Assembly (NCBI GenBank): GCA_017395065.1
Contig: JAFPWH010000002.1
Span: 2,156 to 66,155, forward strand
Direction of reading: 5' to 3'
Source of the DNA: Clostridia bacterium
GTDB taxonomy: Bacteria; Bacillota; Clostridia; Christensenellales; Aristaeellaceae
Length of the DNA stretch: 64,000 bases
Below are positions 2,318-43,483 of the stretch, piece by piece. Within the stretch, counting starts at the first letter, position 1, and the number at the start of each line of letters is the position of its first letter. Position numbers and translations under genes: made by a program. The notes beneath the pieces are model-generated. The model saw only the letters and a program-made list of their open reading frames with translations. It was not told where the DNA came from and made no database searches.

Positions 2318-4492
2318 ATGAAACGCTTGCTTATCCTTCTTCTTACGTTTGCGCTTCTTTTGCCCGCACTTGCGGAAGACAATTATCCCGAGAACATACC
2401 CTGTGAATACGAGGGGCAGACGTACTTTCTTAGCTACGACGCGCAGAGAGGCGTTTTCCGCCTGAAGGACGCAGAAGGCGCGACCGTCAGGCAAAAGCTT
2501 TTCGGGTCGCTGACGTACAGCGAGGCGACGGATACGTATCTTATCAAAATCGGCGAACAGTACGGCTACCTCGACGGCGAGGGCAACTGGCTGTTCCCGT
2601 TCGGCTTCGACGAGGCCTATGCATTTCAGGACAACGGCGTTGCGGTCGTCAGGACGGGCGACCTGTGGGGCTATGTGCGCTCGGACGGCACGTACCTTTT
2701 CGAACCGCAGTTCACAAACGACCGGGGCTGGGGCGAACGGATGCAATTCCATCACGGCGCTGCCCGCGTACGTAAAGACGGCTTATACGGCTTTATCCGC
2801 GAGGACGGCACATACCTGTTCGAACCGCAATTCACAGATGCCAAACCGTTCTGGTATTGCACGATCACGCTGGTCGGTGATGAAAACGGCCTGTACGGGT
2901 ATGTTACGACGTCAGGGGAATTCCTCTTTGAACCGCAATTTGAATGGACGTCAGAGCCGTTCATGAATACCGATGACATAGCGCGTGTTTGGAAAAACGG
3001 CCTGGCCGGTTTCATCAAAGCGGACGGTACGTTTTTGCTGGAGCCGCAGTTCGAGGAGGCGAGCGGCTTCGGATCCGCAGGATATGCTCATGTCAGAAAA
3101 GACGGGTATTACGGACTCGTCGGGCTTGACGGAGCTTACCTGATCGAGCCGCGGTTCGAGAAAGATATATATTTCTACGGCGGCCTGGCTGCGGAACCTG
3201 TTGACGGATTGTACGGCTATATCGACATGAGCGGTGCGTTCGTTATACCGCCCGCGTTCGCATATGCCTGTGCTTTTTCCGAAGAAATCGCGGCAGTAAG
3301 GAACGCCGAAGGAAAATGGGGATATATAAACACTGCCGGGGAATATGTGACGGAACCGAAATATGACAGTGCGTACGCGTTTGAGCACGGTTTCGGCATA
3401 GTGGAAATGCTCAACGGCAGGAAGACGGAGTGGTGGGGGACCGAGTTTGACGATTATTATGTCGGCCTCGTGGATCATGACGGCCGGGAGGTGCTCGAGC
3501 CGATTTACGATTATATCGAAGTTACCGAAGACGGCATCATCACGGCCGAAAAGGACGGCGAAGAACGGATCTGTACCTATGAAAACGGAAAACTCAAGGA
3601 TATCGAGATCGTGGACACGGTATTGGATCTTTCGGATTACTATCCCAACCGGGGCGAAAAAGTGGTCACGCTCGGCGAAGAGGCGGATATCGCCTGGGAC
3701 AGCGCTTTTTCCCTGCCAAGGCTCGACGGCGCGACTGCGCTTCTGCCCACCTATTCGGCGTTTGCGCAGGCGACATATCCGCAGGACACGCACTTTGAAT
3801 ATTATGACGGCGCACAGTTTACCTGTACAAAAACCAATAGGGCCTACGATAACCTGATCTACGGGGAAACGGACATCATCTTCTGCGCAGGCCCCAGCGA
3901 CGCGCAGATCGAAGACGCGCTTGACGCGGGCGTGGAGTTTGAGTTCACGCTGATGGGCTATGAATCGTTCGTATTCATCGTAAACAGGGACAATCCGCTG
4001 GAGAGCATCACGCTCGAACAGATCAAAGATATCTACAGCGGAAAGCTTACCCAATGGGACGAAGTGGGCGTAAGCGGCATGGGCGACATCATCGCCTACC
4101 AGCGCCCGAAGAACAGCGGCAGCCAAACCGCGCTGGAGAAGCTGATGGGGGATACGCCCCTGATGGAAGCGCCGCAGATGTACGTTTCCGACGGCATGGA
4201 GGACATACTGACCACCATCGAATACCGCAACTTTCCCAACGCCATCGGCTACACCTTCCGCTTTTTCTGCGCGGACATGGTTGGCAGCAAGGTAAAGCTT
4301 TTGGCGGTCGACGGCGTGGAGGCGAACGTGGAAAATATAAGAAACGGCTCCTACCCCATCATCACCCCGCTGTACGCGGTCACCAGAAAGGGCGACACGA
4401 ACCCCAACATCCAAATCTTCCTCGACTGGATCAAAGGCCCGCAGGGCCAGGAGCTGCTGGAAAAGAGCGGATATGTGGGGATCGCGGGGTAA
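2318..4492 (+). CDS. Secreted WG-repeat protein fused to a PstS-like phosphate-binding domain. Paralog of the upstream gene.
   Basis: Signal peptide MKRLLILLLTFALLLPALA. More than 10 WG repeats ('LYGYV..DGT/SGEFLFEPQF'). C-terminal PstS-like domain; the last 30 aa are identical to the upstream gene. Confidence 0.75.
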   Translation: MKRLLILLLTFALLLPALAEDNYPENIPCEYEGQTYFLSYDAQRGVFRLKDAEGATVRQKLFGSLTYSEATDTYLIKIGEQYGYLDGEGNWLFPFGFDEAYAFQDNGVAVVRTGDLWGYVRSDGTYLFEPQFTNDRGWGERMQFHHGAARVRKDGLYGFIREDGTYLFEPQFTDAKPFWYCTITLVGDENGLYGYVTTSGEFLFEPQFEWTSEPFMNTDDIARVWKNGLAGFIKADGTFLLEPQFEEASGFGSAGYAHVRKDGYYGLVGLDGAYLIEPRFEKDIYFYGGLAAEPVDGLYGYIDMSGAFVIPPAFAYACAFSEEIAAVRNAEGKWGYINTAGEYVTEPKYDSAYAFEHGFGIVEMLNGRKTEWWGTEFDDYYVGLVDHDGREVLEPIYDYIEVTEDGIITAEKDGEERICTYENGKLKDIEIVDTVLDLSDYYPNRGEKVVTLGEEADIAWDSAFSLPRLDGATALLPTYSAFAQATYPQDTHFEYYDGAQFTCTKTNRAYDNLIYGETDIIFCAGPSDAQIEDALDAGVEFEFTLMGYESFVFIVNRDNPLESITLEQIKDIYSGKLTQWDEVGVSGMGDIIAYQRPKNSGSQTALEKLMGDTPLMEAPQMYVSDGMEDILTTIEYRNFPNAIGYTFRFFCADMVGSKVKLLAVDGVEANVENIRNGSYPIITPLYAVTRKGDTNPNIQIFLDWIKGPQGQELLEKSGYVGIAG

Positions 4493-4597: not shown

Positions 4598-4935
4598 GAT
4601 GGTATAATCATTTATGCGTTGAAGAAAAGCAGTAACCGTTTTTCCGCGCCCAAAGAGAACTGCCGGGCGGTGCGAGGCAGCGGGCGGAGGCGGTGAACTC
4701 GTTTCGGAGCATCCCTTTATGGGCGGCCGCCCGCGTTACAGGGCAAAAGAGAGGGTCTTACAAGGATCAGGAAGAGTGGTACCGCGCGTGCTTTCATGCG
4801 CCTCTTCGCCTGTAAGGGCTCTTTATTTTACGCGGACGAGGCGCCGCGCAAAAGAAATAAAGCGGCTTCAGGCCCCCTCAAACAACGAAAACACAGAACG
4901 ACCGCTTCAAGCGGGATCGTCACAAAGGAGTCGAT
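4598..4935 (+). promoter_or_regulatory. Promoter (extended -10 TGgTATAAT at 4600-4608) plus a T-box riboswitch leader of leuS.
   Basis: A ~330-nt leader lies between the promoter and the leuS ATG. It carries the conserved T-box sequence 'AGUGGUACCGCG' at 4775-4786. A candidate Leu specifier CUC sits at 4698-4700 in a 'GAACUCG' context. A U-run (ctttatttt, ~4838-4846) follows a GC-rich segment. The ORF-track start at 4796 lies inside this leader. Confidence 0.6.
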
Positions 4936-4939
4936 AACA

Positions 4940-7354
<2,415 letters not shown>

Positions 7355-28745: not shown

Positions 28746-28898
28746 TTATTATCTCTCCTTTTTGCCTCGTTTGTGTTTTGCAAAAGTGCTTACACTATAT
28801 TATACGCGAAAGAAAGCGAATTGTACACAGTTTTCTCTTGATTTTTTTCGCTTTTATGCTATTATATAATAGACTATATATTAAGTGAGGTGCTTCCT

Positions 28899-30404
28899 AT
28901 GGAGGTTCGTACCCGTTTTGCACCCAGCCCGACCGGCTACATGCATCTGGGAAACCTGAGAAGCGCGCTGTACACCTATCTCTGGGCGCGCAAAAACGGC
29001 GGAAAATTTATTCTGAGAATAGAGGACACCGACCAGGAACGCGAGGTTCCCGGTGCGGTTGAAAAGATATACGCATCTTTGAACGTCGCGGGCCTCAAAT
29101 ACGACGAGGGCCCGGACGTCGGCGGCGACTACGGCCCCTACGTGCAGAGCCAGCGCAAGGACATGTACCTGCCCTACGCAAAGCAGCTCATCGAAAGCGG
29201 CCACGCCTACTACTGCTTCTGCACCAAGGAGCGGCTGGACGAGGCGCGCGCCGAAGCGGAAAAGAAGGGCGAGACCTTCAAATACGACAAAAAGTGCCTG
29301 CACCTTTCCAAAGAAGAGGTTCAGGCGCGCCTGGACGCGGGCGAACCCTACGTCATCCGCCAGAACATACCGCTCGAGGGCAAGGCGGGCTTTGACGACG
29401 TGATCTACGGCCACGTGGAGGTGGACTGCGCGACGCTTGACGACAACGTGCTCATCAAGGCGGACGGTCTGCCCACCTACAACTTTGCCAACGTCATCGA
29501 CGACCACACTATGTGCATAACCCACGTCATGCGCGGCAACGAGTACCTTTCCAGCGCACCCAAGTACAACCTGCTCTACGAGGCGTTCGGCTGGAAGCCG
29601 CCCGTGTACGTGCACCTGACGCCGGTCATGTGCCGCGACGTACAGAAGGACGAAAACGGTCAGCCCATCCTGGGAGAGGACGGGCAGCCCGTGGAATACG
29701 TGCGCAAGCTTTCCAAGCGCAAGGGCGACCCGACGTTCGAGGACCTTCTGTCCCGCGGATACCTGGTCGAGGCGGTCATCAACTACATGACGCTGCTGGG
29801 CTGGAGCCCCAAGGGCGAGGAGGAGTTCTTCAGCCTCTCCGAGCTCGAAAAGCTGTTCGACCTGGAGGGCCTGAGCAAATCGCCCTCGATCTTCGACATG
29901 CAGAAGATGAACTGGTTCAACGCCGAGTACATCCGGAGGCTGAGCCCCGAAAAGTATCTGGAAATGGCAAGGCCGTGGCTCGATCAGGTGCTCTCCGAAG
30001 AGAAATTCGACTACAGGCGCCTGTGCGAGCTTTTGCAAAGCCGCACCGAGTATTTCGCCCAGCTGCCGGACATGGTCCGCTTCCTGAAGGACATGCCGGA
30101 TTTTCCGAACGATTTCTACGTCAACAAAAAGCAAAAGAGCACCCTCGAAAGCAGCGTAAGCGCGCTCAAGGAGGCCAAAGAACTGCTCGAAACCGTGACG
30201 GACTGGTCCGAAAGCAATCTGCACGACGTCGTCATGGAGAAGATCGCTTCCCTCGGCATCAAGAACGGGCAGATGCTCTGGCCGCTCAGGATCGCCGTCT
30301 CCGGGCAGCAGAACACGCCCGGCGGCGCGTTTGAGATCATGTATTTGCTTGGCAGAAGCGAAACGCTTGCCCGCCTGAACGCTTCCCTCGAAAGGCTTGT
30401 ATAA
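28899..30404 (+). CDS. gltX: Glutamyl-tRNA synthetase
   Basis: 'TRFAPSPTGYMHLGNLRSALYTYL' (HIGH region) and 'KLSKR' (KMSKS). RBS AAGTGAGG. The ATG at 28899 is preferred over the GTG at 28890. Promoter -10 TATAAT at ~28866. Confidence 0.95.
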   Translation: MEVRTRFAPSPTGYMHLGNLRSALYTYLWARKNGGKFILRIEDTDQEREVPGAVEKIYASLNVAGLKYDEGPDVGGDYGPYVQSQRKDMYLPYAKQLIESGHAYYCFCTKERLDEARAEAEKKGETFKYDKKCLHLSKEEVQARLDAGEPYVIRQNIPLEGKAGFDDVIYGHVEVDCATLDDNVLIKADGLPTYNFANVIDDHTMCITHVMRGNEYLSSAPKYNLLYEAFGWKPPVYVHLTPVMCRDVQKDENGQPILGEDGQPVEYVRKLSKRKGDPTFEDLLSRGYLVEAVINYMTLLGWSPKGEEEFFSLSELEKLFDLEGLSKSPSIFDMQKMNWFNAEYIRRLSPEKYLEMARPWLDQVLSEEKFDYRRLCELLQSRTEYFAQLPDMVRFLKDMPDFPNDFYVNKKQKSTLESSVSALKEAKELLETVTDWSESNLHDVVMEKIASLGIKNGQMLWPLRIAVSGQQNTPGGAFEIMYLLGRSETLARLNASLERLV

Positions 30405-30406
30405 AA

Positions 30407-31537
30407 ATGAAGTATCCCGATTATGACAGGAGCAGCCTGTCGATCACGGCCTCCGTGGGGGCGTTCCTGGGCGGGGAGAGCAACTATCCCACGCTCCCGG
30501 AGATCGACCTCGCGCTTTGCCGGGACGGCGTGAAAAAGATCGTCCTCGTGCTGTGCGACGGCATGGGCGAGCTGCTCATGCGGCGCCATCTGCCGGCGGA
30601 CTGCTTCCTGCGCAAAAACGATAAGGCGGCCATTTCCTCGGTGTTCCCGTCGACCACGGCCGCCGCGACCACGTCGATCTGGACGGGCCTGAGCCCCCTC
30701 GAACACGGCTGGATCGGCTGGAGCATGTACTTCAAGGAGTGCGCCGCCGCCATCGACGTGTTTACCGGCAACGTCAGCGGAAAGGGCGTGCGCTACCCGG
30801 ACGGCTCTCCCGCGCCGAAGCTCATGCCGCTTCCGGGCGTCATGGCCGGCGCGAAGCACCCGGGCATGCACATGGTCTCGGCCTTCGACAACTTTCCGGG
30901 CAAGGGCTTTACGCAGCACGCAGTCAGGACGTTCCACGACCAGCTGGTGCTCGCAAACGCCCTCATAAGGCAGGAAGACAACGCTTTGGTGTGCGTGTAC
31001 AACGGCGAGCCCGACCATACGATGCACAATAAGGGCGTGAACGCGCCGGAGACCGTCGAAAAATTTGTCGCGGCGAACCGCGAGCTGGAGTGGCTCAGCG
31101 GCGTTTTGCCCGAGGACACGCTTTTGATCGTCACGGCGGACCACGGGCTCGTGGACGGCATAAACCCCGTCGACCTTAAGGCGATCCCCTCGGTGGACGA
31201 ATGCCTGTGGATGCCGCCCTCTGTGGAGGCGCGGGCCGCCGCGCTGTTCGTAAAGCCCTTCCGCAGGGCACAGTTCGAAAGAGAATTCAGGGCCGTCTGC
31301 GGGGACGAATTTTTGCTGATCCCCCGCGAGGACGCGCTTAGCATGAACCTGCTGGGGCGCGGGATCGTCCACCCCAAGGCGGAGGACGCGATGGGCGACT
31401 ATCTCGCCTGCGCGACCGGCGCAAGCTTCATCGTCTACGGCGCAATACCCGACATGATCGGCATGCACGCCGGGCTTACCGACGAGGAAATGACCGTGCC
31501 CGTGATCCTTGCGCGGGGAAGGGGAGGCAAAGCATGA
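30407..31537 (+). CDS. Alkaline-phosphatase superfamily protein (type I phosphodiesterase/nucleotide pyrophosphatase-like)
   Basis: 'KIVLVLCDGMGELLM', 'SVFPSTTAAATTSIWTG' (Thr/Ser nucleophile region), 'LIVTADHGLVDG'. Starts 3 nt after the gltX stop. Confidence 0.7.
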   Translation: MKYPDYDRSSLSITASVGAFLGGESNYPTLPEIDLALCRDGVKKIVLVLCDGMGELLMRRHLPADCFLRKNDKAAISSVFPSTTAAATTSIWTGLSPLEHGWIGWSMYFKECAAAIDVFTGNVSGKGVRYPDGSPAPKLMPLPGVMAGAKHPGMHMVSAFDNFPGKGFTQHAVRTFHDQLVLANALIRQEDNALVCVYNGEPDHTMHNKGVNAPETVEKFVAANRELEWLSGVLPEDTLLIVTADHGLVDGINPVDLKAIPSVDECLWMPPSVEARAAALFVKPFRRAQFEREFRAVCGDEFLLIPREDALSMNLLGRGIVHPKAEDAMGDYLACATGASFIVYGAIPDMIGMHAGLTDEEMTVPVILARGRGGKA

Positions 31538-33408
31538 CGCTCACGTTCGCCCTGCCCTTGGAAGGCGGCAAGGGCGAATGGAAGGCGTCCCTCAAAAGCC
31601 TCAAAAAAACGGACGGCATAAAGAAGCTGCGCCTGAACAGAAGAAAAAAGCGCCTGCGCGTCACGTTCGACGAAGCGCGCCTTAGCCCCTCGGAGGTCGA
31701 GCGCGCCGTCGCGGACGCGGGCATCGACGCGCAGCCGATCATCGGCGGAAGTGTGGACAGATTCGGCGCGTTCGCCCAGCTGATGTGCTGGGTACTGACG
31801 CTGAGCATGCTGTACCTTACGCTGGCTTCGCGGGTTATTTTGCCCGTGCCGGAGGTGTTCAGTTATCCGCTGAGCGCGGGTGTAACGGAGCTTGTGCTGA
31901 TGCTCGCGGTGTGGCTTTTAAGCTTTCGCGCGCTGAATTTGAACCGTCTGGGCGGCAGATACGCGGGCTGGGACACGTACGCGTTTGCGACGCTCGCGGC
32001 TGTGTGCGCGGCGGCGTATTCCGTTCCGGCGCTGATCTACTGCGCGTGGAAGATCAGCGCGGGCGCGGACGTGAACGTGGAGCTGTTCTTCGACTCCGCG
32101 GCGCTTTTGCCGACGCTGGCCACCTTGGGCATCGCAACGCAGAGAAGGGCCACGCGCCGCACCGAAAACACGCTGCGCGAGCTCGGCCTGCCGGTCGAAA
32201 ACCTGCGCTTCCTCAGCGCGGACGAGACGAAAAAGGCCGTGTTCGCCGCGCGTCTTAGCAAAATATTCACCTGGGTCGCGCTCCTTACGGCACTCGGCGC
32301 GCTGGTCTGTTGGATCGTGCGCGACCAGCGGCTGCCCTTTGCGGTCAAGTGCGCCGTGTGCGTACTGGTCGTAAGCTGCCCCAACATTCCGCGCCGCATG
32401 GCGCCCACGCTGATCACGCGGGGCGTCGCGGCCTGCGCGGAAAACAAAACCCCCGTGAGCAACGCGCCGGTGCTGGAAAAGTTAAAGGAAACGGACACGG
32501 TCATTTTCGAAAGCCACGACGCGCTGACAAGGAGCGAAGCGATCGTGCGCGGCTGCGTGCTCACGGACGGCATGTCTCAAAACATACTGCTGGCGCTGGC
32601 GGCGTCGGCGCTGCAAATGGAAAACGACGGCGTATCCATTGCCATCCGCGAAAGGGCCGAGGCGCTCAGACTCCCGCTCGACCCCCTGATCGAAAGGGAC
32701 GTAAACGAGGACAGCGACGTAAGGGCGCTGGTGGGAGAAACGCGCGTGCTGGTCGGCTCCTACGATTTCCTGCTCAAAAACGCGCTGGATCTGAGCAAGT
32801 GGGAGCAGCAGGTGGACGAGCTCACGAACGAAGGGCTCATCTGCGTGATGGTGGCTTCCTCCGGCGTGATCAAGGGCATCATCACGCTGGAAAGCAAGCT
32901 GCTGCCCCGCGTGTGCGAGACGATGGACAAGCTGCGCAAAATGAAGATAGAGACCTACGTCATGGCGACCGAGAACACGAAGGCTGCGCGCGTACTGGCG
33001 CTGCAGGTGGGCGCGGACAAGAGCGTTTTCCCGCACGAGGCGGAGATCGCCATCCGCCTCCTCGCCGCCGACAAGCGAAAGACGCTCTACGTCTACGGCG
33101 GCGAAAGCCCCGTCTTCGACGTGCCGGGCCTTAAAATGAACCTGGGCGCGAACCCCGGCGCGCGGGCCGACGTGCGCGGCGCGCTGGGCGATCTGCCAAA
33201 CGTCCTCTCCATCGCGCGCCGCACCTTCGGAAGCGTAAAAAAACGGCTGCGCCTGTGGCTTTTGTACGAGCTCATAACGCTGCCCGTGGCGGCGGGCGCG
33301 CTGCGCCTGTGGCTGGGCGTTACGATCAGCCCGCTGTTGGCAGCGCCGCTCATGCTCATGATGAACATATTGATGCTCTACACCGGAAAGACCCATAAAC
33401 GGATCTGA
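31534..33408 (+). CDS. Degenerate P1B-type (heavy-metal) ATPase homologue, predicted non-catalytic
   Basis: TM core and P-domain of a P-type ATPase are alignable ('VLEKLKETDTVIF'). DKTGT is replaced by ESHDA, CPC by CPN, GDGxND by GGESP. There is no TGES actuator domain and no N-terminal CxxC. The start overlaps the upstream gene (ATGA). Confidence 0.6.
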   Translation: MTLTFALPLEGGKGEWKASLKSLKKTDGIKKLRLNRRKKRLRVTFDEARLSPSEVERAVADAGIDAQPIIGGSVDRFGAFAQLMCWVLTLSMLYLTLASRVILPVPEVFSYPLSAGVTELVLMLAVWLLSFRALNLNRLGGRYAGWDTYAFATLAAVCAAAYSVPALIYCAWKISAGADVNVELFFDSAALLPTLATLGIATQRRATRRTENTLRELGLPVENLRFLSADETKKAVFAARLSKIFTWVALLTALGALVCWIVRDQRLPFAVKCAVCVLVVSCPNIPRRMAPTLITRGVAACAENKTPVSNAPVLEKLKETDTVIFESHDALTRSEAIVRGCVLTDGMSQNILLALAASALQMENDGVSIAIRERAEALRLPLDPLIERDVNEDSDVRALVGETRVLVGSYDFLLKNALDLSKWEQQVDELTNEGLICVMVASSGVIKGIITLESKLLPRVCETMDKLRKMKIETYVMATENTKAARVLALQVGADKSVFPHEAEIAIRLLAADKRKTLYVYGGESPVFDVPGLKMNLGANPGARADVRGALGDLPNVLSIARRTFGSVKKRLRLWLLYELITLPVAAGALRLWLGVTISPLLAAPLMLMMNILMLYTGKTHKRI

Positions 33409-33460: not shown

Positions 33461-33886
33461 ATGCTGAAGGGAATCAGTCCGATCATCAGCCCCGAGCTCA
33501 TCAAGATCCTGATGGAGATGGGACACGGAGACGAGCTCTGCATAGGCGACGGCAACTTTCCGGCCGCCTCGATCGCCAAGCGCCTCGTGCGCCTGGACGG
33601 CCACGGCGTAAGCGAGGTGCTGGACGCGGTGCTCAAGCTCATGCCCCTGGACACCTACGTCGAAGCGCCGGTGACGCTGATGCAGGTGGTGCCGGGCGAC
33701 GACGTGGTGCCCGTGATCTGGGACGAGTACAAAGCCGTCATCCAAAAGAACGAGGGCGACAAAAAGATCGAAAACGTCGAGCGCTTCGCCTTCTACGAGC
33801 GCGCGAAGAACTGCTACGCCGTCGTGGCCACGGGCGAAAGCGCGCTGTACGCGAACATCATACTGAAAAAGGGCGTCGTGAAGTAA
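33461..33886 (+). CDS. RbsD/FucU family sugar mutarotase/pyranase
   Basis: 'MGHGDELCIGDGNFP' is the hallmark RbsD/FucU motif. 141 aa. Confidence 0.85.
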   Translation: MLKGISPIISPELIKILMEMGHGDELCIGDGNFPAASIAKRLVRLDGHGVSEVLDAVLKLMPLDTYVEAPVTLMQVVPGDDVVPVIWDEYKAVIQKNEGDKKIENVERFAFYERAKNCYAVVATGESALYANIILKKGVVK

Positions 33887-33920: not shown

Positions 33921-34706
33921 GTGAAACGTATCTTTGTCCTACTGATGTGCCTTATGCTCCTTGCACTCACCGCCTACGCCGAGAGCCCGAAGCAGAGCGG
34001 AGACTACACCTACATCCTTGCCGAGGACGGCACGGCCGTCATCACCGGCTACACGGGCAAGGGCAGGACGCTGGCGATCCCCGCGAGCGTGGACGGCCTC
34101 GCGGTCAGCGCCGTCGGTGAGGAAGCCTTTGCCGGCAGCGACGTCACCATCGTAAACCTGCCCGAGGGCATTCTGTCCGTCGGGGACGGTGCGTTCAAGG
34201 AGTGCGCTTCCCTGATCAGCGTCATCATGCCCGAGGGGCTTCAGACGCTGGGCGCGAGCACGTTCAGAAAGTGCGAATCCTTAAGGATCCTCGCGCTCCC
34301 CTCCACGATCACCGAGATCGGCAAAGGCGCGTTCTTCGGCTGCGTGAACCTGACGGAGATCGTACTGCCCGAGGCGCTTACGGAGCTGCCCACGAACATG
34401 TTCTACGGCTGCACGATGCTGGAGACCGTCACGATCCCCGAAAACGTGACCGTGATCGGCGCAACCGCCTTCATGAACTGCAGCGCCCTCAAAGAGGTGA
34501 TCCTGCCGGACGGCGTGACCGAGATCCTGGCCGGCGCCTTCAGCGGCTGCGACAGCCTGGGCGAACTCAAAGTGTCCGAAAAACTCGAGTCCATCGGCTA
34601 CGGCGCCTTCACGAGCGAAAGCTTCAAGCTCATCGTCGTCAAGGGCTCTTATGCCGAAAGCTACTGCAAGAAGTTCCACGTGAACTACGAATACGCGGAA
34701 GAATAA
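33921..34706 (+). CDS. Secreted leucine-rich-repeat (BspA-type LRR_5) protein
   Basis: Signal peptide. About eight repeats of 'LP..L..IG..AF..C..L..I.'. Confidence 0.8.
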   Translation: MKRIFVLLMCLMLLALTAYAESPKQSGDYTYILAEDGTAVITGYTGKGRTLAIPASVDGLAVSAVGEEAFAGSDVTIVNLPEGILSVGDGAFKECASLISVIMPEGLQTLGASTFRKCESLRILALPSTITEIGKGAFFGCVNLTEIVLPEALTELPTNMFYGCTMLETVTIPENVTVIGATAFMNCSALKEVILPDGVTEILAGAFSGCDSLGELKVSEKLESIGYGAFTSESFKLIVVKGSYAESYCKKFHVNYEYAEE

Positions 34707-34740: not shown

Positions 34741-36450
34741 ATGGAGACAGCCGAGAAAAAAGCAAGCAATTTCATAGAAGAATTCGTCGAAGAGGATCTG
34801 AAAAGCGGCCGCTACGACCACGTGCGCACCCGCTTTCCGCCCGAGCCCAACGGCTATCTGCACATCGGCCACGTAAAGGCGCTGTGCATCGATTTCGGCA
34901 TCGCCCAGAAGTACGGCGGTGTGACGAACCTGCGCTTCGACGATACCAACCCCGCCAAGGAGGACACGGTCTTTGTCGAGGGCATCCAGCGGGACATCGA
35001 ATGGCTGGGCTTCAAATGGGAAAAGCTCTACTTTGCCAGTGACTTTTTCCCGCGCCTGTACGAGATCGCGCAGGGACTGATCAAAAAAGGCCTCGCCTAC
35101 GTGGACGACCAAAGCCCCGAGGAGATGCGCAAAAACCGCGGCACGCTCACGCAGCCCGGCGTCGACAGCCCCTGGAGAAACCGCAGCGTGGAGGAGAACC
35201 TGGATCTGTTCGAGCGCATGAAAAACGGCGAATTCCCGGACGGAAGCCGCGTGCTCAGGGCCAAGATCGACATGGCCTCCCCGAACGTCCTCATGCGCGA
35301 CCCTACGATCTACCGCATCAAGAGATGCCATCACCACAGGACGGGCGACGAATGGTGCATCTACCCGATGTACGATTTCCAGCACCCGATCCAGGATGCC
35401 ATCGAGGGCATCACGCACTCGCTGTGCTCCCTCGAATATGAGATCCACCGCCCTCTGTACGAGTGGATGGTCAATAACGCCGGCTTCGAGCAGCCGCCGC
35501 GCCAGATCGAGTTCGCGCGCCTGAACCTGACCCGTACGGTCATGAGCAAGCGCTATCTGCGCTACATGGTCGAAAACCATCTGGTCAACGGCTGGGACGA
35601 TCCGCGCATGCCCACGCTGGTCGGCATGAAGCGCAGGGGCTACACCGCCGAGGCCATCAAGGACTTCCTCTCCCGCGTCGGCGTGGCCAAGGCAGACAGC
35701 GTCGTGGACGGCGCGCTGCTGGAGGCCTGCGTGCGCGATGCGCTGGGCGATACGGCGCCGAGGGCCATGGCGGTCCTGAACCCCCTCAAGGTCACCTTCG
35801 TCAACTGGGACGAGGACAAGACGGACGAGATCGAGATGGAGAACCATCCGGACCATCCCGAAATGGGCACGCGAAAGCTGCATTTCACGAAGCACGCCTA
35901 CATCGACGCCGAGGACTTCATGCTCGACCCGCCCAAGAAGTTCTTCCGCCTCGCACCCGGCCGCGAGGTGCGCCTGAAGGGCGCCTACATCGTAAAGTGC
36001 GAGGACGTGAAGCTGGACGAAAATGGGAACCCCGTCGAGCTGCTCTGCTCCGTGGACCTCGACAGCCGTTCCGGCAGCGAAGGCGCGAACCGCAAGGTCA
36101 AGGGCACGCTGCACTGGCTGAGCGAAAAAGACGCGCTGCCCGCCGAGATCAGGCTCTACGAGCCCCTGATCAACGACGAGGAGCCCTGCGCCGAGGAAGA
36201 GGACAAGAGCGAGGAGGCCGAGGAGACCGACGCGCCCAAGGGCATCAACCTGAACATCAACCCCGACAGCCTGAAGGTCGTCTCCAATGCGCTGGTCGAG
36301 CCGGCCATCGCCCAAAGCGAGGTCGGCAGCCGCTTCCAGTTCCTGCGCACGGGCTACTTCTGCAAGGACCCGGATTCCACGAACGAAAAACCGGTCTTCA
36401 ACCGCATCGTCCCGCTCAAGGACAGCTGGGCGAAGGTCAACAAAAACTGA
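34741..36450 (+). CDS. glnS: Glutaminyl-tRNA synthetase
   Basis: 'RFPPEPNGYLHIGHVKALCIDFGIAQKYGGVTNLRFDDTNP' (HIGH region) and 'VMSKR' (KMSKS). C-terminal anticodon-binding beta-barrels with an acidic insertion (EPCAEEEDKSEEAEETD). Confidence 0.9.
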   Translation: METAEKKASNFIEEFVEEDLKSGRYDHVRTRFPPEPNGYLHIGHVKALCIDFGIAQKYGGVTNLRFDDTNPAKEDTVFVEGIQRDIEWLGFKWEKLYFASDFFPRLYEIAQGLIKKGLAYVDDQSPEEMRKNRGTLTQPGVDSPWRNRSVEENLDLFERMKNGEFPDGSRVLRAKIDMASPNVLMRDPTIYRIKRCHHHRTGDEWCIYPMYDFQHPIQDAIEGITHSLCSLEYEIHRPLYEWMVNNAGFEQPPRQIEFARLNLTRTVMSKRYLRYMVENHLVNGWDDPRMPTLVGMKRRGYTAEAIKDFLSRVGVAKADSVVDGALLEACVRDALGDTAPRAMAVLNPLKVTFVNWDEDKTDEIEMENHPDHPEMGTRKLHFTKHAYIDAEDFMLDPPKKFFRLAPGREVRLKGAYIVKCEDVKLDENGNPVELLCSVDLDSRSGSEGANRKVKGTLHWLSEKDALPAEIRLYEPLINDEEPCAEEEDKSEEAEETDAPKGINLNINPDSLKVVSNALVEPAIAQSEVGSRFQFLRTGYFCKDPDSTNEKPVFNRIVPLKDSWAKVNKN

Positions 36451-40933: not shown

Positions 40934-43483
40934 ATGAAGGTCAAGGGCATTATCGCCGGTGTGGTCAGCGTGGGACTGCTGGTGGGCGGAAATGCGTTAT
41001 ATAATAAGGAGGAGTCGCAAAGGCAGAAGGAAGTTTCCGCCTATATGACCCAAATCGAGGAACTGAACACCGAGCTGGAGAAAAAAGACAAGGAAATCGG
41101 CGAAAAGGAAAAGGAACTGGGTACCCAGTCGACCGTAAACAGCCGTCTTCAGGCCAAGCTCGACAGCGCGATCGACAAGATCGCCGGTTTGAACGAGAGC
41201 AACGCCGGCCTTTCCGAGCAGCTGAGCCAGAGCGAAACCACGGTGGGCGAGCAGGCGCAGAAGCTCGAGGACAACGAAAAGACCATCGGCGAGCAGGCGC
41301 AAAAGCTCGAGGACAACGAAAAGACCATCGGCGAGCAGGCGCAAAAACTCTCCGATAACGAGGACACGATCAATCAGCAGGCGCAGACGATCTCCGATCA
41401 GGAAGACGAGATCGCGGCGCTCACCGAAAACGTGGATCAGCTCAGCGCGGAGCTTGACGAAGCGAAGACCGAAAACGAAAGCATGAGCGCGTCCCTCGGC
41501 GAAAAGGACAAGGAGATCGAGGCGCTGAACAAAGCCAATGCCGACCTCAAGGCCGAGCTCGAACAGGCAAACGATACCATCAGCGAGTTAAACGGCAAGA
41601 TCCAGAACTTGGAAGCCAGCGCCGCCACCGCCTCGGGCGAATTTGACGAACTCAAGGTCAGCTACGACGACCTGGCGAGCCGCTTCGAGACGCTCAAAAA
41701 CGACATGAGCGCAAAGAGCGACGAGTACGAAAAGCTCCTGGGCGAATACCAGGAAGCGCTGGCGCTGAAATCGAGCGCGGAAAAGGAAGTCGAGGACCTG
41801 AAGGCCGAGGCCGGTCAGTACAAGGACACGATCGACAAGCTCGGCGCGGAGGTGGAGAGCCTCTCCGCACAGCTCACGGGCGGCTCGGAAGGTACGGAAG
41901 GCACGGAGGGCACGCAGGACGACGGCGCGCTCAAAACGCGCATCGAGGAGCTGGAATCGCAGCTCAACGAGGTGCAGGCGGCCTATGACGGCGTCGTGTC
42001 GCTGCTGAGCGAAAAAGACGAGCAGCTCGACGCACTGACCGAAACCATTTCCGAAAAAGAGCAGCAGCTTACCGACGCGAAAAACGAACTCGACACCGCG
42101 AGAGCGGGCCTCGAGGAAGCGAGCACGGCGCTGGTCGAAAACGCCAATCAGATCATAGACCTCAACCAAAACGCCGAAGCGACCGCCGCGGAGCTGGATC
42201 AAGCCAGAACCCGCATCGATGAGATTCAGACCGCGCTGGACGAGACGGGCGCGCAGCTGACCGAGACCGAAGAAGCCCTGCAGGAAGCCGAAACGCTGCT
42301 CAGCCAGACGCAGCAGGAGCTGGACGAGACCAAACAAGCTCTCGTCGCGGCAAATCAGGAACTCGAAACCACGAAGGCCGAGCTGGCAGAAGCGCAGACG
42401 GCACTTACCTCCGCGCTGGAAATACTGACTTCCACCGAAGAGGAGCTCGAAGCCACGAAAGAGACGCTCGCTTCCACCGAGGCCGAGCTTGAAACCACGA
42501 AAGAGACGCTCGCTTCCACCGAGGCCGAATTGGAGACCACGAAAGAGACGCTGACTTCCACCGAAGCCGAACTTGAGACCACGAAAGAGACGCTTACTTC
42601 CACCGAGGCCGAATTGGAGACCACGAAAGAGACGCTTACTTCCACCGAGGCCGAGCTTGAGACCACGAAAGAGACGCTTACTTCCACCGAAGCCGAATTG
42701 GAGACCACGAAAGAAACGCTTACTTCCACCGAAGCCGAACTTGAGACCACGAAAGAGACGCTGACTTCCACCGAGGCACTTCTGGGCGACACGCAGGCCG
42801 AACTCGACAGCACGAAGGAAACGCTGACTCAAACCGAGGAAACGCTGGAGAGCACGCAGGCGACGCTGGAGAGCACGCAGAACACGCTGACCGAAACGGA
42901 AGCGACGCTTGCCTCTACCGAGGAAACGCTCTCTGCCACGCAGAACACGTTGGCCGAGACCGAAGCGACGCTGGCGGACACCGAAGCGACGCTGGCGGAC
43001 ACCGAAGCAGCGCTTGAAAGCACGCAGAACACGTTGGCAGACACCGAAGCCACGCTGGCCTCCACCGAGGCAGAGCTCGAAAGCACGCAGAACACGCTGT
43101 CCGAGACCGAAGCCACGCTGGAAGACAGGCAGCAGCAGCTGGACGAATTGATGATCTCCCCGGACGCCGAAAACTACAAGGTCGAGTACATCGCGGGCCG
43201 CATGGAAGACGGCCTCGCCACGGACATCACGCGCAAGCGCGTCAAGATCGATTTCTCGAACCTCGGCATGTATGTGAACAACGTAAAGCTTGAGATCCTG
43301 AACCCCGACAAGGAGGTCATCTACGTAAGTACGCTGCGCCCCGGCGAGGTCCGCTACATCGTGGACGTGAGCGAGCCGGTCGTGCCCGGCGAACTGTACT
43401 GGGTGCGCCGCACGTACTACGACGGCAACAACAAGGAAATCAGCCAGCTGACCATACAGGTCCGCGTCTACATCGGGCTGTAA
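40934..43483 (+). CDS. Large membrane-anchored coiled-coil protein (849 aa) with multiple tandem repeat families and a C-terminal globular domain
   Basis: N-terminal TM (IIAGVVSVGLLVGG). ~700 aa of heptad-like Glu/Leu/Thr-rich sequence. 15-aa repeats (TIGEQAQKLEDNEK x3). 14-aa repeats (ETTKETLTSTEAEL, ~8 copies, 42-bp DNA units). 'TEATLADTEATLADTEAALESTQNTL' series. The terminal ~110 aa are non-repetitive. Confidence 0.8.
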   Translation: MKVKGIIAGVVSVGLLVGGNALYNKEESQRQKEVSAYMTQIEELNTELEKKDKEIGEKEKELGTQSTVNSRLQAKLDSAIDKIAGLNESNAGLSEQLSQSETTVGEQAQKLEDNEKTIGEQAQKLEDNEKTIGEQAQKLSDNEDTINQQAQTISDQEDEIAALTENVDQLSAELDEAKTENESMSASLGEKDKEIEALNKANADLKAELEQANDTISELNGKIQNLEASAATASGEFDELKVSYDDLASRFETLKNDMSAKSDEYEKLLGEYQEALALKSSAEKEVEDLKAEAGQYKDTIDKLGAEVESLSAQLTGGSEGTEGTEGTQDDGALKTRIEELESQLNEVQAAYDGVVSLLSEKDEQLDALTETISEKEQQLTDAKNELDTARAGLEEASTALVENANQIIDLNQNAEATAAELDQARTRIDEIQTALDETGAQLTETEEALQEAETLLSQTQQELDETKQALVAANQELETTKAELAEAQTALTSALEILTSTEEELEATKETLASTEAELETTKETLASTEAELETTKETLTSTEAELETTKETLTSTEAELETTKETLTSTEAELETTKETLTSTEAELETTKETLTSTEAELETTKETLTSTEALLGDTQAELDSTKETLTQTEETLESTQATLESTQNTLTETEATLASTEETLSATQNTLAETEATLADTEATLADTEAALESTQNTLADTEATLASTEAELESTQNTLSETEATLEDRQQQLDELMISPDAENYKVEYIAGRMEDGLATDITRKRVKIDFSNLGMYVNNVKLEILNPDKEVIYVSTLRPGEVRYIVDVSEPVVPGELYWVRRTYYDGNNKEISQLTIQVRVYIGL
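41240..41390 (+). repeat. 45-bp in-frame tandem repeats (x3) within the coiled-coil gene
   Basis: accatcggcgagcaggcgcaaaagctcgaggacaacgaaaag units. Confidence 0.8.
42440..42780 (+). repeat. 42-bp in-frame tandem repeats (~8 copies) within the coiled-coil gene
   Basis: gaaaccacgaaagagacgct(c/g/t)(g/a)cttccaccgaggccga(g/a)ct(t/g) units encoding ETTKETLTSTEAEL. Confidence 0.85.

Follow-up and report, generated by a model that had tools for sequence, protein, structure and literature searches.

The gltX locus

The window analysed here is a 64,000-nt stretch of contig JAFPWH010000002.1 (positions 2,156 to 66,155, forward strand) from the "Clostridia bacterium" assembly GCA_017395065.1. Within it the glutamate-tRNA ligase gene gltX is followed on the same strand by a gene for a predicted metalloenzyme of the alkaline phosphatase (AP) superfamily, by a gene for a 624-aa membrane protein related to the P-type ATPases, and by a gene for an RbsD/FucU mutarotase (Table 1). 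A first-pass annotation, made from the sequence alone, had described the third of these as a catalytically dead homologue of the P1B heavy-metal pumps, conserved rather than decayed, behind gltX and the AP-superfamily gene. The description stands: the motif losses are fixed among relatives of the protein, and selection on its gene is evident. The protein is referred to below as the pseudo-ATPase. No canonical P-type pump is found elsewhere in the window.

The pseudo-ATPase is nearest to the P1B heavy-metal ATPases, although at scores well below the family cut-offs (TIGR01525 of NCBIfam, E 4e-28, 98.6 bits vs a cut-off of 346; TIGR01511, 93.9 bits vs 397). Pfam Hydrolase (PF00702) is matched above its gathering score (34.1 vs 26.4 bits). 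The match to Pfam E1-E2_ATPase covers only the last 77 profile positions (104–180, equivalent to M3/M4) and at 23.8 bits is under the cut-off of 28.1. Among PDB sequences phmmer matches Archaeoglobus fulgidus CopA (3j09, E 7e-25) and Legionella pneumophila CopA (3rfu). With an AlphaFold2 (AF2) model of the protein (pLDDT 78.6, pTM 0.68) as query, the top Foldseek matches are all P1B pumps, with TMq up to 0.67. The model has the eight-helix topology MA, MB, M1–M6 (aa 76–101, 113–134, 150–175, 186–216, 233–262, 267–303, 551–586 and 600–619), and the folds of the phosphorylation (P) and nucleotide-binding (N) domains are retained. Hydropathy peaks agree with these helices, so that both lines of prediction give a P1B-like membrane topology, in keeping with the first-pass view that the membrane core is preserved. 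The HMA-like N-terminal fold has sub-cut-off profile matches to Pfam HMA (E 1e-3) and to CopZ (NF033794, E 3e-5).

Loss of catalytic and metal-site motifs

The motif substitutions listed in the first-pass annotation are all found at the aligned positions. In phmmer alignments to 3j09 and 3rfu, vifESHDAltr sits on vifDKTGTltk, in a strand-then-helix setting that is kept in the AF2 model; scPNiprr is aligned to aCPCafgl in transmembrane helix 4 (TM4); and yvyGGESPVFDvPgl is aligned to fvGDG-INDaPal, placing GGESPVFD at the Mg-binding hinge GDGxND. Misalignment of these positions was considered as an alternative explanation and ruled out, since two independent MAFFT alignments repeat the phmmer result against solved structures, making three alignments in all, and the predicted structure concurs. 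The actuator (A) domain, some 100 residues between M2 and M3 that include TGES, is deleted, and is seen in the MAFFT alignments as a gap of about that length relative to pumps and sister proteins. The N-terminal CxxC (GMxCxxC) is likewise absent, as claimed earlier: LEGGKGEW stands in its position, though an HMA-like fold is still predicted there.

Several losses go beyond those noted previously. The TGD of the P-domain is replaced by ATE, and most of the N-domain contacts to ATP are gone. We take these contacts in A. fulgidus CopA to be E457, H462 (of SEHP), G490xG492 and G501. At the equivalent positions the pseudo-ATPase has L360 for E457, D365 for H462 and D393-S-D395 for GxG, and only the counterpart of G501, G408, remains. 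The metal-site motifs of TM4, TM5 and TM6 read CPN, YE and MLMMN. The TM4 Cys-Pro is invariant in 18/18 aligned sequences, and the other ligands beside it are partly kept in the family.

With no Asp in motif I, phosphorylation of the protein should be impossible; with TGD and GDGxND both gone, Mg and phosphate coordination should be impossible as well; and the absence of the A-domain would leave nothing to drive E1/E2 gating. As judged from these motifs, the pseudo-ATPase is a CopA-type P1B chassis predicted to be unable to pump or to perform any of the steps in the Post-Albers cycle. Glu326 was considered as an alternative nucleophile and rejected: its position is occupied by E, D, H, Y, T or P among members, and the other HAD motifs are gone. 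Operationally, an enzyme homologue with its catalytic residues missing and its gene under purifying selection (see below) is a pseudoenzyme.

Table 1. Features of the gltX–fucU region, in window coordinates.
Feature	Position	Strand	Basis
Sigma-70-like promoter candidate upstream of gltX, TTGATT-16-TATTAT with TG	28838..28865	+	Consensus scan only
gltX, glutamate-tRNA ligase, first gene of the cluster	28890..30404	+	TIGR00464, E 1e-147
Predicted cytosolic metalloenzyme, AP superfamily (NPP/phosphonoacetate-hydrolase-like)	30407..31537	+	Pfam Phosphodiest, E 2e-15
Shine-Dalgarno sequence AGGGGAGG for the pseudo-ATPase, inside 3' end of AP gene	31520..31527	+	Read from sequence
Pseudo-P1B-ATPase, whole open reading frame	31534..33408	+	ATG start, 624 aa
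HMA-like ferredoxin fold without CxxC, aa 1–72	31534..31749	+	AF2, beta-alpha-beta-beta-alpha-beta
Helices MA, MB, M1, M2, aa 76–216	31759..32181	+	AF2 helices, hydropathy, conservation
Linker of ~20 aa in place of ~100-aa A-domain with TGES	32182..32241	+	Alignment gap vs pumps and sisters
TM4 CPN for CPC	32377..32385	+	Alignments
ESHDA for phosphorylation motif DKTGT	32509..32523	+	phmmer, MAFFT
Former nucleotide-binding (N) domain, best-conserved region	32539..32898	+	Per-domain identity
N-domain ASALQ	32602-16	+	Family-specific
N-domain ENDG for SEHP	32620-31	+	Alignment
N-domain PLDP	32674-85	+	Family-specific
N-domain DSD for GxG	32710-18	+	Alignment
N-domain RALVGETRVLVG	32722-57	+	Within most conserved region
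N-domain W423	32800-02	+	Family-specific
P-domain ATE for TGD	32965..32973	+	Alignment
RLLAADK, family-specific P-domain helix	33055..33075	+	Conservation
GGESPVFD for Mg-binding hinge GDGxND	33097..33120	+	Alignments
Helices M5–M6, aa 553–619	33190..33390	+	AF2 and alignment
TM5 YE for YN	33265-70	+	Alignment
TM6 MLMMN for MxxSS	33352-66	+	Alignment
fucU, RbsD/FucU mutarotase	33461..33886	+	NF011949, 149 bits, above cut-off

Distribution and selection

A word-indexed search returned one relative at 99% identity and seven orthologues at 65–71%. All eight have ESHDA, GGE-PV-VPGL and the A-domain deletion, and CPN is present in seven, the remaining one having CPD. None of the eight has a normal DKTGT, which agrees with the first-pass view of ESHDA as a conserved substitution. 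When 1.84 billion representatives at 50% identity were searched exhaustively with an HMMER profile, about seven clusters without an A-domain (termed A-less below) were found, at 317–1136 bits; ranked after them were two full-length sister clusters (417–420 bits) and then generic P1B pumps (273 bits or less). A second word-indexed profile search gave no new family members, a scan of reference genomes only one more (a goat-abomasum Clostridia metagenome-assembled genome, MAG), and a metagenome scan three close members only. All family members come from gut or rumen metagenomes or from "Clostridia bacterium" MAGs.

Between the pseudo-ATPase gene and that of its 99% relative there are 28 synonymous and nine non-synonymous changes, for a ratio of non-synonymous to synonymous rates (dN/dS) of 0.105; in the same genome pair the ratio is 0.09 for gltX and 0.17 for the AP gene. 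Within the 65–71% clade it is 0.17–0.28, at a dS of about 1. In the A-less genes examined, the reading frame is nowhere broken by a frameshift or a premature stop. The family is thus very small and kept by purifying selection, and the possibility that this is a pseudogene or a case of strain-specific decay was ruled out by the conservation and the dN/dS values.

Stepwise origin and sister proteins

More distant A-less members vary at the DKTGT position, where DRRST, HRRST, YDESG, DEVNG, EQNGA, TAGGI and PAEGF are found, and in TM4, which has CPG, CPC or CPT. The nearest proteins with an A-domain are three full-length sisters of metagenomic origin (P0010, P0169 and P0170), in which CxxC, TGES (replaced by TGRA, AEKS and SGAN) and GDGxND are already missing. 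P0010 and P0169 still carry DKTGT, CPC and TGD, and P0170 carries HAPGT and SED. These sisters belong to the same clade as the pseudo-ATPase and share ASA(L/E)Q, LPLDP, W and RLLxAD with it, but they retain the A-domain fold and have neither an AP gene nor gltX adjoining. Two of the three lie upstream of a near-identical fucU (~90% identical to that of the window), as the pseudo-ATPase does.

In a bootstrapped neighbour-joining (NJ) tree built from 544 shared columns with 200 replicates, the A-less proteins are monophyletic in 200/200, as are the A-less proteins together with the sisters, and P0170, with HAPGT and its A-domain kept, branches next to the A-less proteins as their immediate sister in 199/200. 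Long-branch attraction is possible in such a tree, but the family-specific motifs held in common favour the same grouping. Taken with the motif states of the sisters, these groupings indicate a single origin of the A-less form, through losses that accumulated one after another in a lineage of uncultured Clostridia from gut and rumen. The metal-sensing CxxC would have gone first, along with the dephosphorylation loop and the Mg hinge, then the phospho-Asp, and finally the A-domain, in a single deletion. A further protein, P0198 (572 aa), lacks most of the A-domain and the HMA domain and has intact DKTGT, TGD and SEYP. It was rejected as a family member, as it groups with canonical pumps; either the A-domain was lost here a second time, independently, or the gene model is truncated.

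Where constraint now lies

Mean pairwise identity was compared domain by domain between representatives of the seven A-less clusters and five canonical pumps, over the same alignment columns. In the pumps the membrane helices are the most conserved (M3–M4 and M5–M6 both 0.57), followed by the P-domain (0.49–0.53) and then the N-domain (0.33). This order is inverted in the A-less family, where the N-domain is on top (0.44), followed by M1–M2 (0.36), M3–M4 (0.32), and the P-domain (0.27–0.29) and M5–M6 (0.27). The linker in place of the A-domain is the least conserved segment, at 0.12.

Some residues vary among the pumps yet show little or no variation across the family and its sisters, namely A357-S-A-L360, P381-L-D-P384, R397-A-L..G401.T.V.VG408, W423 and R508-L..A-D-K514. 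In the last of these R508 and A512 are invariant across A-less proteins and sisters, and L509, D513 and K514 nearly so. Some residues shared with pumps are also still invariant or nearly so: Cys282-Pro283 in TM4, Tyr162-Ser163 in TM1, Phe186 in TM2 and Pro600 in TM6; Asp187, beside Phe186, is largely kept. Overall, the pattern of constraint speaks for a function of the cytosolic N-domain surface on a membrane-anchored scaffold rather than one along the ion pathway. Of the roles suggested in the first-pass annotation (channel, sensor, or membrane anchor for the AP-superfamily enzyme), an anchor, or a regulator acting through the N-domain, would be favoured by these data. A channel is disfavoured, because the helices of the ion path are the relaxed parts of the protein.

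The upstream alkaline-phosphatase-superfamily gene

The AP gene begins directly behind gltX, as described earlier, with the gltX stop codon (TAA, 30402–30404) separated by two bases from its ATG at 30407. At its other end, its stop codon and the pseudo-ATPase start codon share the sequence ATGA (31534–37). In the first-pass annotation this overlap was read as translational coupling. The overlap itself is real but occurs only in the window's species; the corresponding gap in relatives is 2, 19, 21, 66 or 93 nt. Since the junction varies in this way, it is the adjacency that is conserved and not the coupling.

The adjacency is found in every A-less locus retrieved, with the AP gene directly upstream in 12/12. 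These loci (the window, L015, L001, L005/L006, L007, L017, L018, L002, L004, L009/L010 and L024) represent five of the seven 50% clusters; clusters P0167 and P0171 lie outside this count. Wherever the contig reaches far enough (the window, L015, L001, L006, L007, L017, L018, L002, L009, L010 and L024), the AP gene is in turn preceded by gltX. L005 (3–1876) and L006 (3–1876) encode the same pseudo-ATPase protein. L005 has an apparent frameshift at the gltX/AP junction, with the AP protein called as 333 aa and an aberrant gltX C-terminus, which is probably an assembly error. No terminator-like site was found on the + strand in the intergenic gaps from gltX to glnS, two + strand matches falling inside the AP gene, and a scan of 26–38 kb showed no Rfam match or T-box upstream of gltX or glnS.

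Residues D51, T83/T84, D203, H207, D245, H246 and H354 of the AP protein, corresponding to the binuclear metal ligands and the Thr nucleophile, do not vary among 50 homologues. Its AF2 model has a pLDDT of 94, and the top Foldseek matches are ENPP6, ENPP5, ENPP7 and ENPP4 along with the phosphonoacetate hydrolase PhnA (TM-scores 0.6–0.65). With metal ligands complete, a nucleophile in place and an AP fold in the model, the product is predicted to be an AP-superfamily enzyme resembling PhnA and the nucleotide pyrophosphatase/phosphodiesterases (NPPs). Direct reading of its sequence showed no hydrophobic signal or transmembrane segment. A defence role, raised by weak PglZ matches among AP homologues, was rejected: there are no PADLOC matches, and the context is housekeeping.

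AP homologues are also found in other arrangements. L011 and L012 have gltX directly upstream of an AP gene (product 49% identical) and no pseudo-ATPase; next instead is an ORF for a 79-aa protein with two predicted transmembrane helices (L011, 8152–8391; L012, 3407–3646). The ORF in L011 shows no evident similarity to the pseudo-ATPase; its product may be a small membrane protein of no relation, or may serve the AP enzyme as an alternative partner in the membrane. In L013 (7001–8667) and L014 (7001–8898), AP homologues at 40% identity (Oscillospiraceae; very abundant, with 211 contig-collection blocks) occur without gltX, between genes for a methyltransferase and a PNP_UDP_1 nucleoside phosphorylase. 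The latter neighbour hints at a nucleotide- or nucleoside-related substrate for AP proteins of the L013/L014 type.

Possible roles

Our preferred proposal, held tentatively and with a chance somewhat short of even, is that the pseudo-ATPase is a non-catalytic membrane scaffold or regulator acting through its re-specified N-domain, with the AP metalloenzyme as the best candidate partner. A partner or ligand would dock on the remodelled cytosolic surface of the N-domain (ASALQ, PLDP, W423, RLxxADK). The likeliest partner would be the NPP-like enzyme, a predicted cytosolic binuclear metallo-phosphodiesterase that is encoded immediately upstream and presumably co-transcribed, and binding could tether this enzyme to the membrane or control it there. 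The invariant Cys-Pro of TM4 might form a residual intramembrane site for a metal or other ligand, which could make the pseudo-ATPase a sensor. In favour of the partnership are the AP gene's place directly upstream in all 12 A-less loci retrieved, the complete active site of the AP protein, and the lack of a hydrophobic N-terminal or transmembrane segment in its sequence as read directly. The divergence of the AP protein also co-varies with that of the pseudo-ATPase beyond the signal in glutamyl-tRNA synthetase (GluRS), with a partial Mantel r of 0.50 over nine taxa (126/5000 permutations reach r); support from this test is weak because the nine taxa are not independent.

Several observations weigh against the proposal. 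The AP family is far wider than that of the pseudo-ATPase (906+ matches), and its members occur both behind gltX with no pseudo-ATPase (L011/L012) and in quite other settings (L013/L014); since such gltX–AP loci exist, the AP protein does not need the pseudo-ATPase. The A-domain-bearing sisters are not beside an AP gene, and two of the three are beside fucU. The order gltX–AP–X–fucU is a synteny common to the whole lineage, and the adjacency may therefore be inherited rather than functional. No AP–ATPase fusion protein was found among the matches of the AP and pseudo-ATPase searches. Finally, no gene of the cluster evolves as fast as that of the pseudo-ATPase. On identical genome pairs the identities are 77–81% for GluRS, 82–91% for FucU, 56–67% for AP and 32–68% for the pseudo-ATPase, the last being 32–40% where GluRS is at 77–81% and FucU at 84–91%. 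Between subclades its dN of 0.68–0.79 is twice that of the AP gene, with 0.14–0.18 for gltX, and residues at the former active site vary. Within the window's own clade the pseudo-ATPase and AP genes have the same dN, 0.26. On balance, a partnership of the two proteins is plausible, and not obligatory for the AP enzyme.

This rapid evolution might instead mean that the gene is a slowly decaying relic, its pump function lost and no other gained, persisting because the loss is recent or because its place in the operon disfavours removal. Besides the dN values, such a history would account for the tiny distribution (~7 clusters in 1.84 billion representatives), for the absence of the gene from the related loci L011/L012, and for the freedom of the old catalytic residues to vary between subclades. 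It is nonetheless distinctly unlikely. The A-less genes examined are free of frameshifts and premature stops, the dN/dS of the closest pair equals that of the housekeeping neighbours, and it stays at 0.17–0.28 at a dS near 1; neutral drift over a dS of at least 1 would have wrecked a 1.9-kb ORF. New invariant motifs (PLDP, ASAL, W423, R508) run through proteins that are only 26–38% identical, implying that constraint has been gained. A different kind of function, which we judge unlikely though less so than decay, would be that of a residual metal or ligand sensor, or of a passive conduit, through a remodelled intramembrane site formed by Cys282-Pro283 (TM4), Tyr578-Glu579 (TM5) and Met607/Asn611 (TM6). 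Occupancy of this site would be signalled to the cytosolic domains, or ions would leak through it without ATP, perhaps supplying the AP enzyme, which requires two metal ions. The Cys-Pro is invariant in 18/18 even though M3–M4 identity is only 0.32; eight of nine members have a carboxylate in TM2 (F186-D187), the counterpart of the entry-site Glu of CopA, seven have the TM6 Met, and six a polar Asn or Asp at the second Ser position. However, the Pro of TM4 is structural in all P-type ATPases, and most members (with CPN, CPG or CPT) are without the second Cys of CPC, which means that the Cu(I) site of CopA cannot be intact. CxxC is gone too, the TM3 entry Asp is replaced, and M3–M4 and M5–M6 are among the regions least constrained relative to pumps (0.27–0.32 vs 0.57), where a conduction path would lead one to expect the reverse.

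The functional partner could also be the downstream mutarotase, or sugar metabolism more generally, the ancestral unit being a P1B-like gene followed by fucU. fucU is the next gene after the pseudo-ATPase in each locus with enough downstream contig (the window, L015, L005, L017, L002, L009, L010 and L024, with a partial copy in L006) and follows two of the three sisters, which have no AP neighbour, so that its adjacency is older than that of the AP gene. We nevertheless regard this as very improbable. FucU is 82–91% identical in pairs where the pseudo-ATPase is 32–68% identical, and so gives no sign of co-evolution; sister P0170 is followed by a different gene; in the window fucU is set off by a 52-nt gap with its own Shine-Dalgarno sequence, AAGGAGG; and proteins of the FucU family are widespread cytosolic enzymes that stand alone.

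Comparison with described proteins

P-type ATPases are among the best-understood membrane machines. The pseudo-ATPase has the predicted architecture of the CopA-type P1B-1 pumps (3j09, 7r0g, 3rfu, ATP7B), to which it is homologous (E 7e-25), and has in common with them the TM4 Cys-Pro, TM1 Tyr-Ser, TM2 Phe-Asp/Glu and TM6 Pro. It differs from them in having no phospho-Asp, TGD, GDGxND, SEHP/GxG ATP contacts, A-domain with TGES, CxxC or second TM4 Cys. The name "HAD family hydrolase", given by the NCBI pipeline to orthologue P0008, fits the above-threshold match to PF00702 but misleads, as the nucleophile of motif I and all HAD catalytic motifs are missing from what is predicted to be an eight-helix membrane protein. 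This serves as a warning for annotation: pipelines will call such a protein a HAD family hydrolase, and transfer by similarity will make it a copper pump, and neither can be right.

The nearest conceptual precedent is PcrP (PA2803) of Pseudomonas aeruginosa, a soluble pseudoenzyme of the HAD superfamily with a reported non-catalytic role (PMC12632274). Like the P-domain of the pseudo-ATPase, it has a HAD fold with its catalytic residues lost. PcrP differs in being small, soluble and of the phosphonoacetaldehyde-hydrolase subfamily, with no homology beyond the superfamily and an unrelated context.

Full-text searching of the literature turned up no P-type ATPase pseudoenzyme and no A-domain-less family. 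These proteins could conceivably be the first described bacterial family of "pseudo-P-type ATPases", in which a CopA chassis was converted through surviving intermediates into a non-pumping membrane receptor or regulator, its ATP-binding domain re-specified for a new ligand or for the NPP-like enzyme; put this fully, we consider the idea possible but doubtful. The new surface would comprise PLDP, ASALQ and W423, with an acidic pocket (ENDG...NEDSD) in the window's clade. If it is true, the gltX operon would couple a membrane or metal signal to the hydrolysis of phosphodiesters or nucleotides. In any case, the family offers a natural dissection of a pump, with living intermediates that suggest the order in which CxxC/TGES, DKTGT and the A-domain were lost, and the move of constraint into the N-domain directs attention to a specific surface where a new function may reside. 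The very narrow distribution of the family, in uncultured gut and rumen Clostridia, limits its importance.

Other features of the window

FucU is strongly conserved across these genomes, at 82–91% identity even where the neighbouring pseudo-ATPase is just 32–40% identical. Between fucU and glnS is a gene for a BspA-type leucine-rich-repeat protein with an N-terminal signal-like hydrophobic segment (33921–34706). L015 has the gene at that position as well, but it is missing there from L005, with glnS directly after fucU, and from L009, with tig-clpP-clpX after fucU. Three class I aminoacyl-tRNA synthetase genes, leuS (4796–7354), gltX (28890–30404) and glnS (34741–36450), lie on one strand within 32 kb. 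Further downstream an 849-aa protein with a long coiled coil is encoded (40934–43483), its only profile matches being to coiled-coil families (crescentin rod, intermediate filament, FliJ), all sub-cut-off. Near the start of the window are tandem paralogues (146–2113 and 2318–4492) of unusual architecture, combining WG-containing beta repeats with a PBP_like_2 (phosphate-binding-protein-like) domain.

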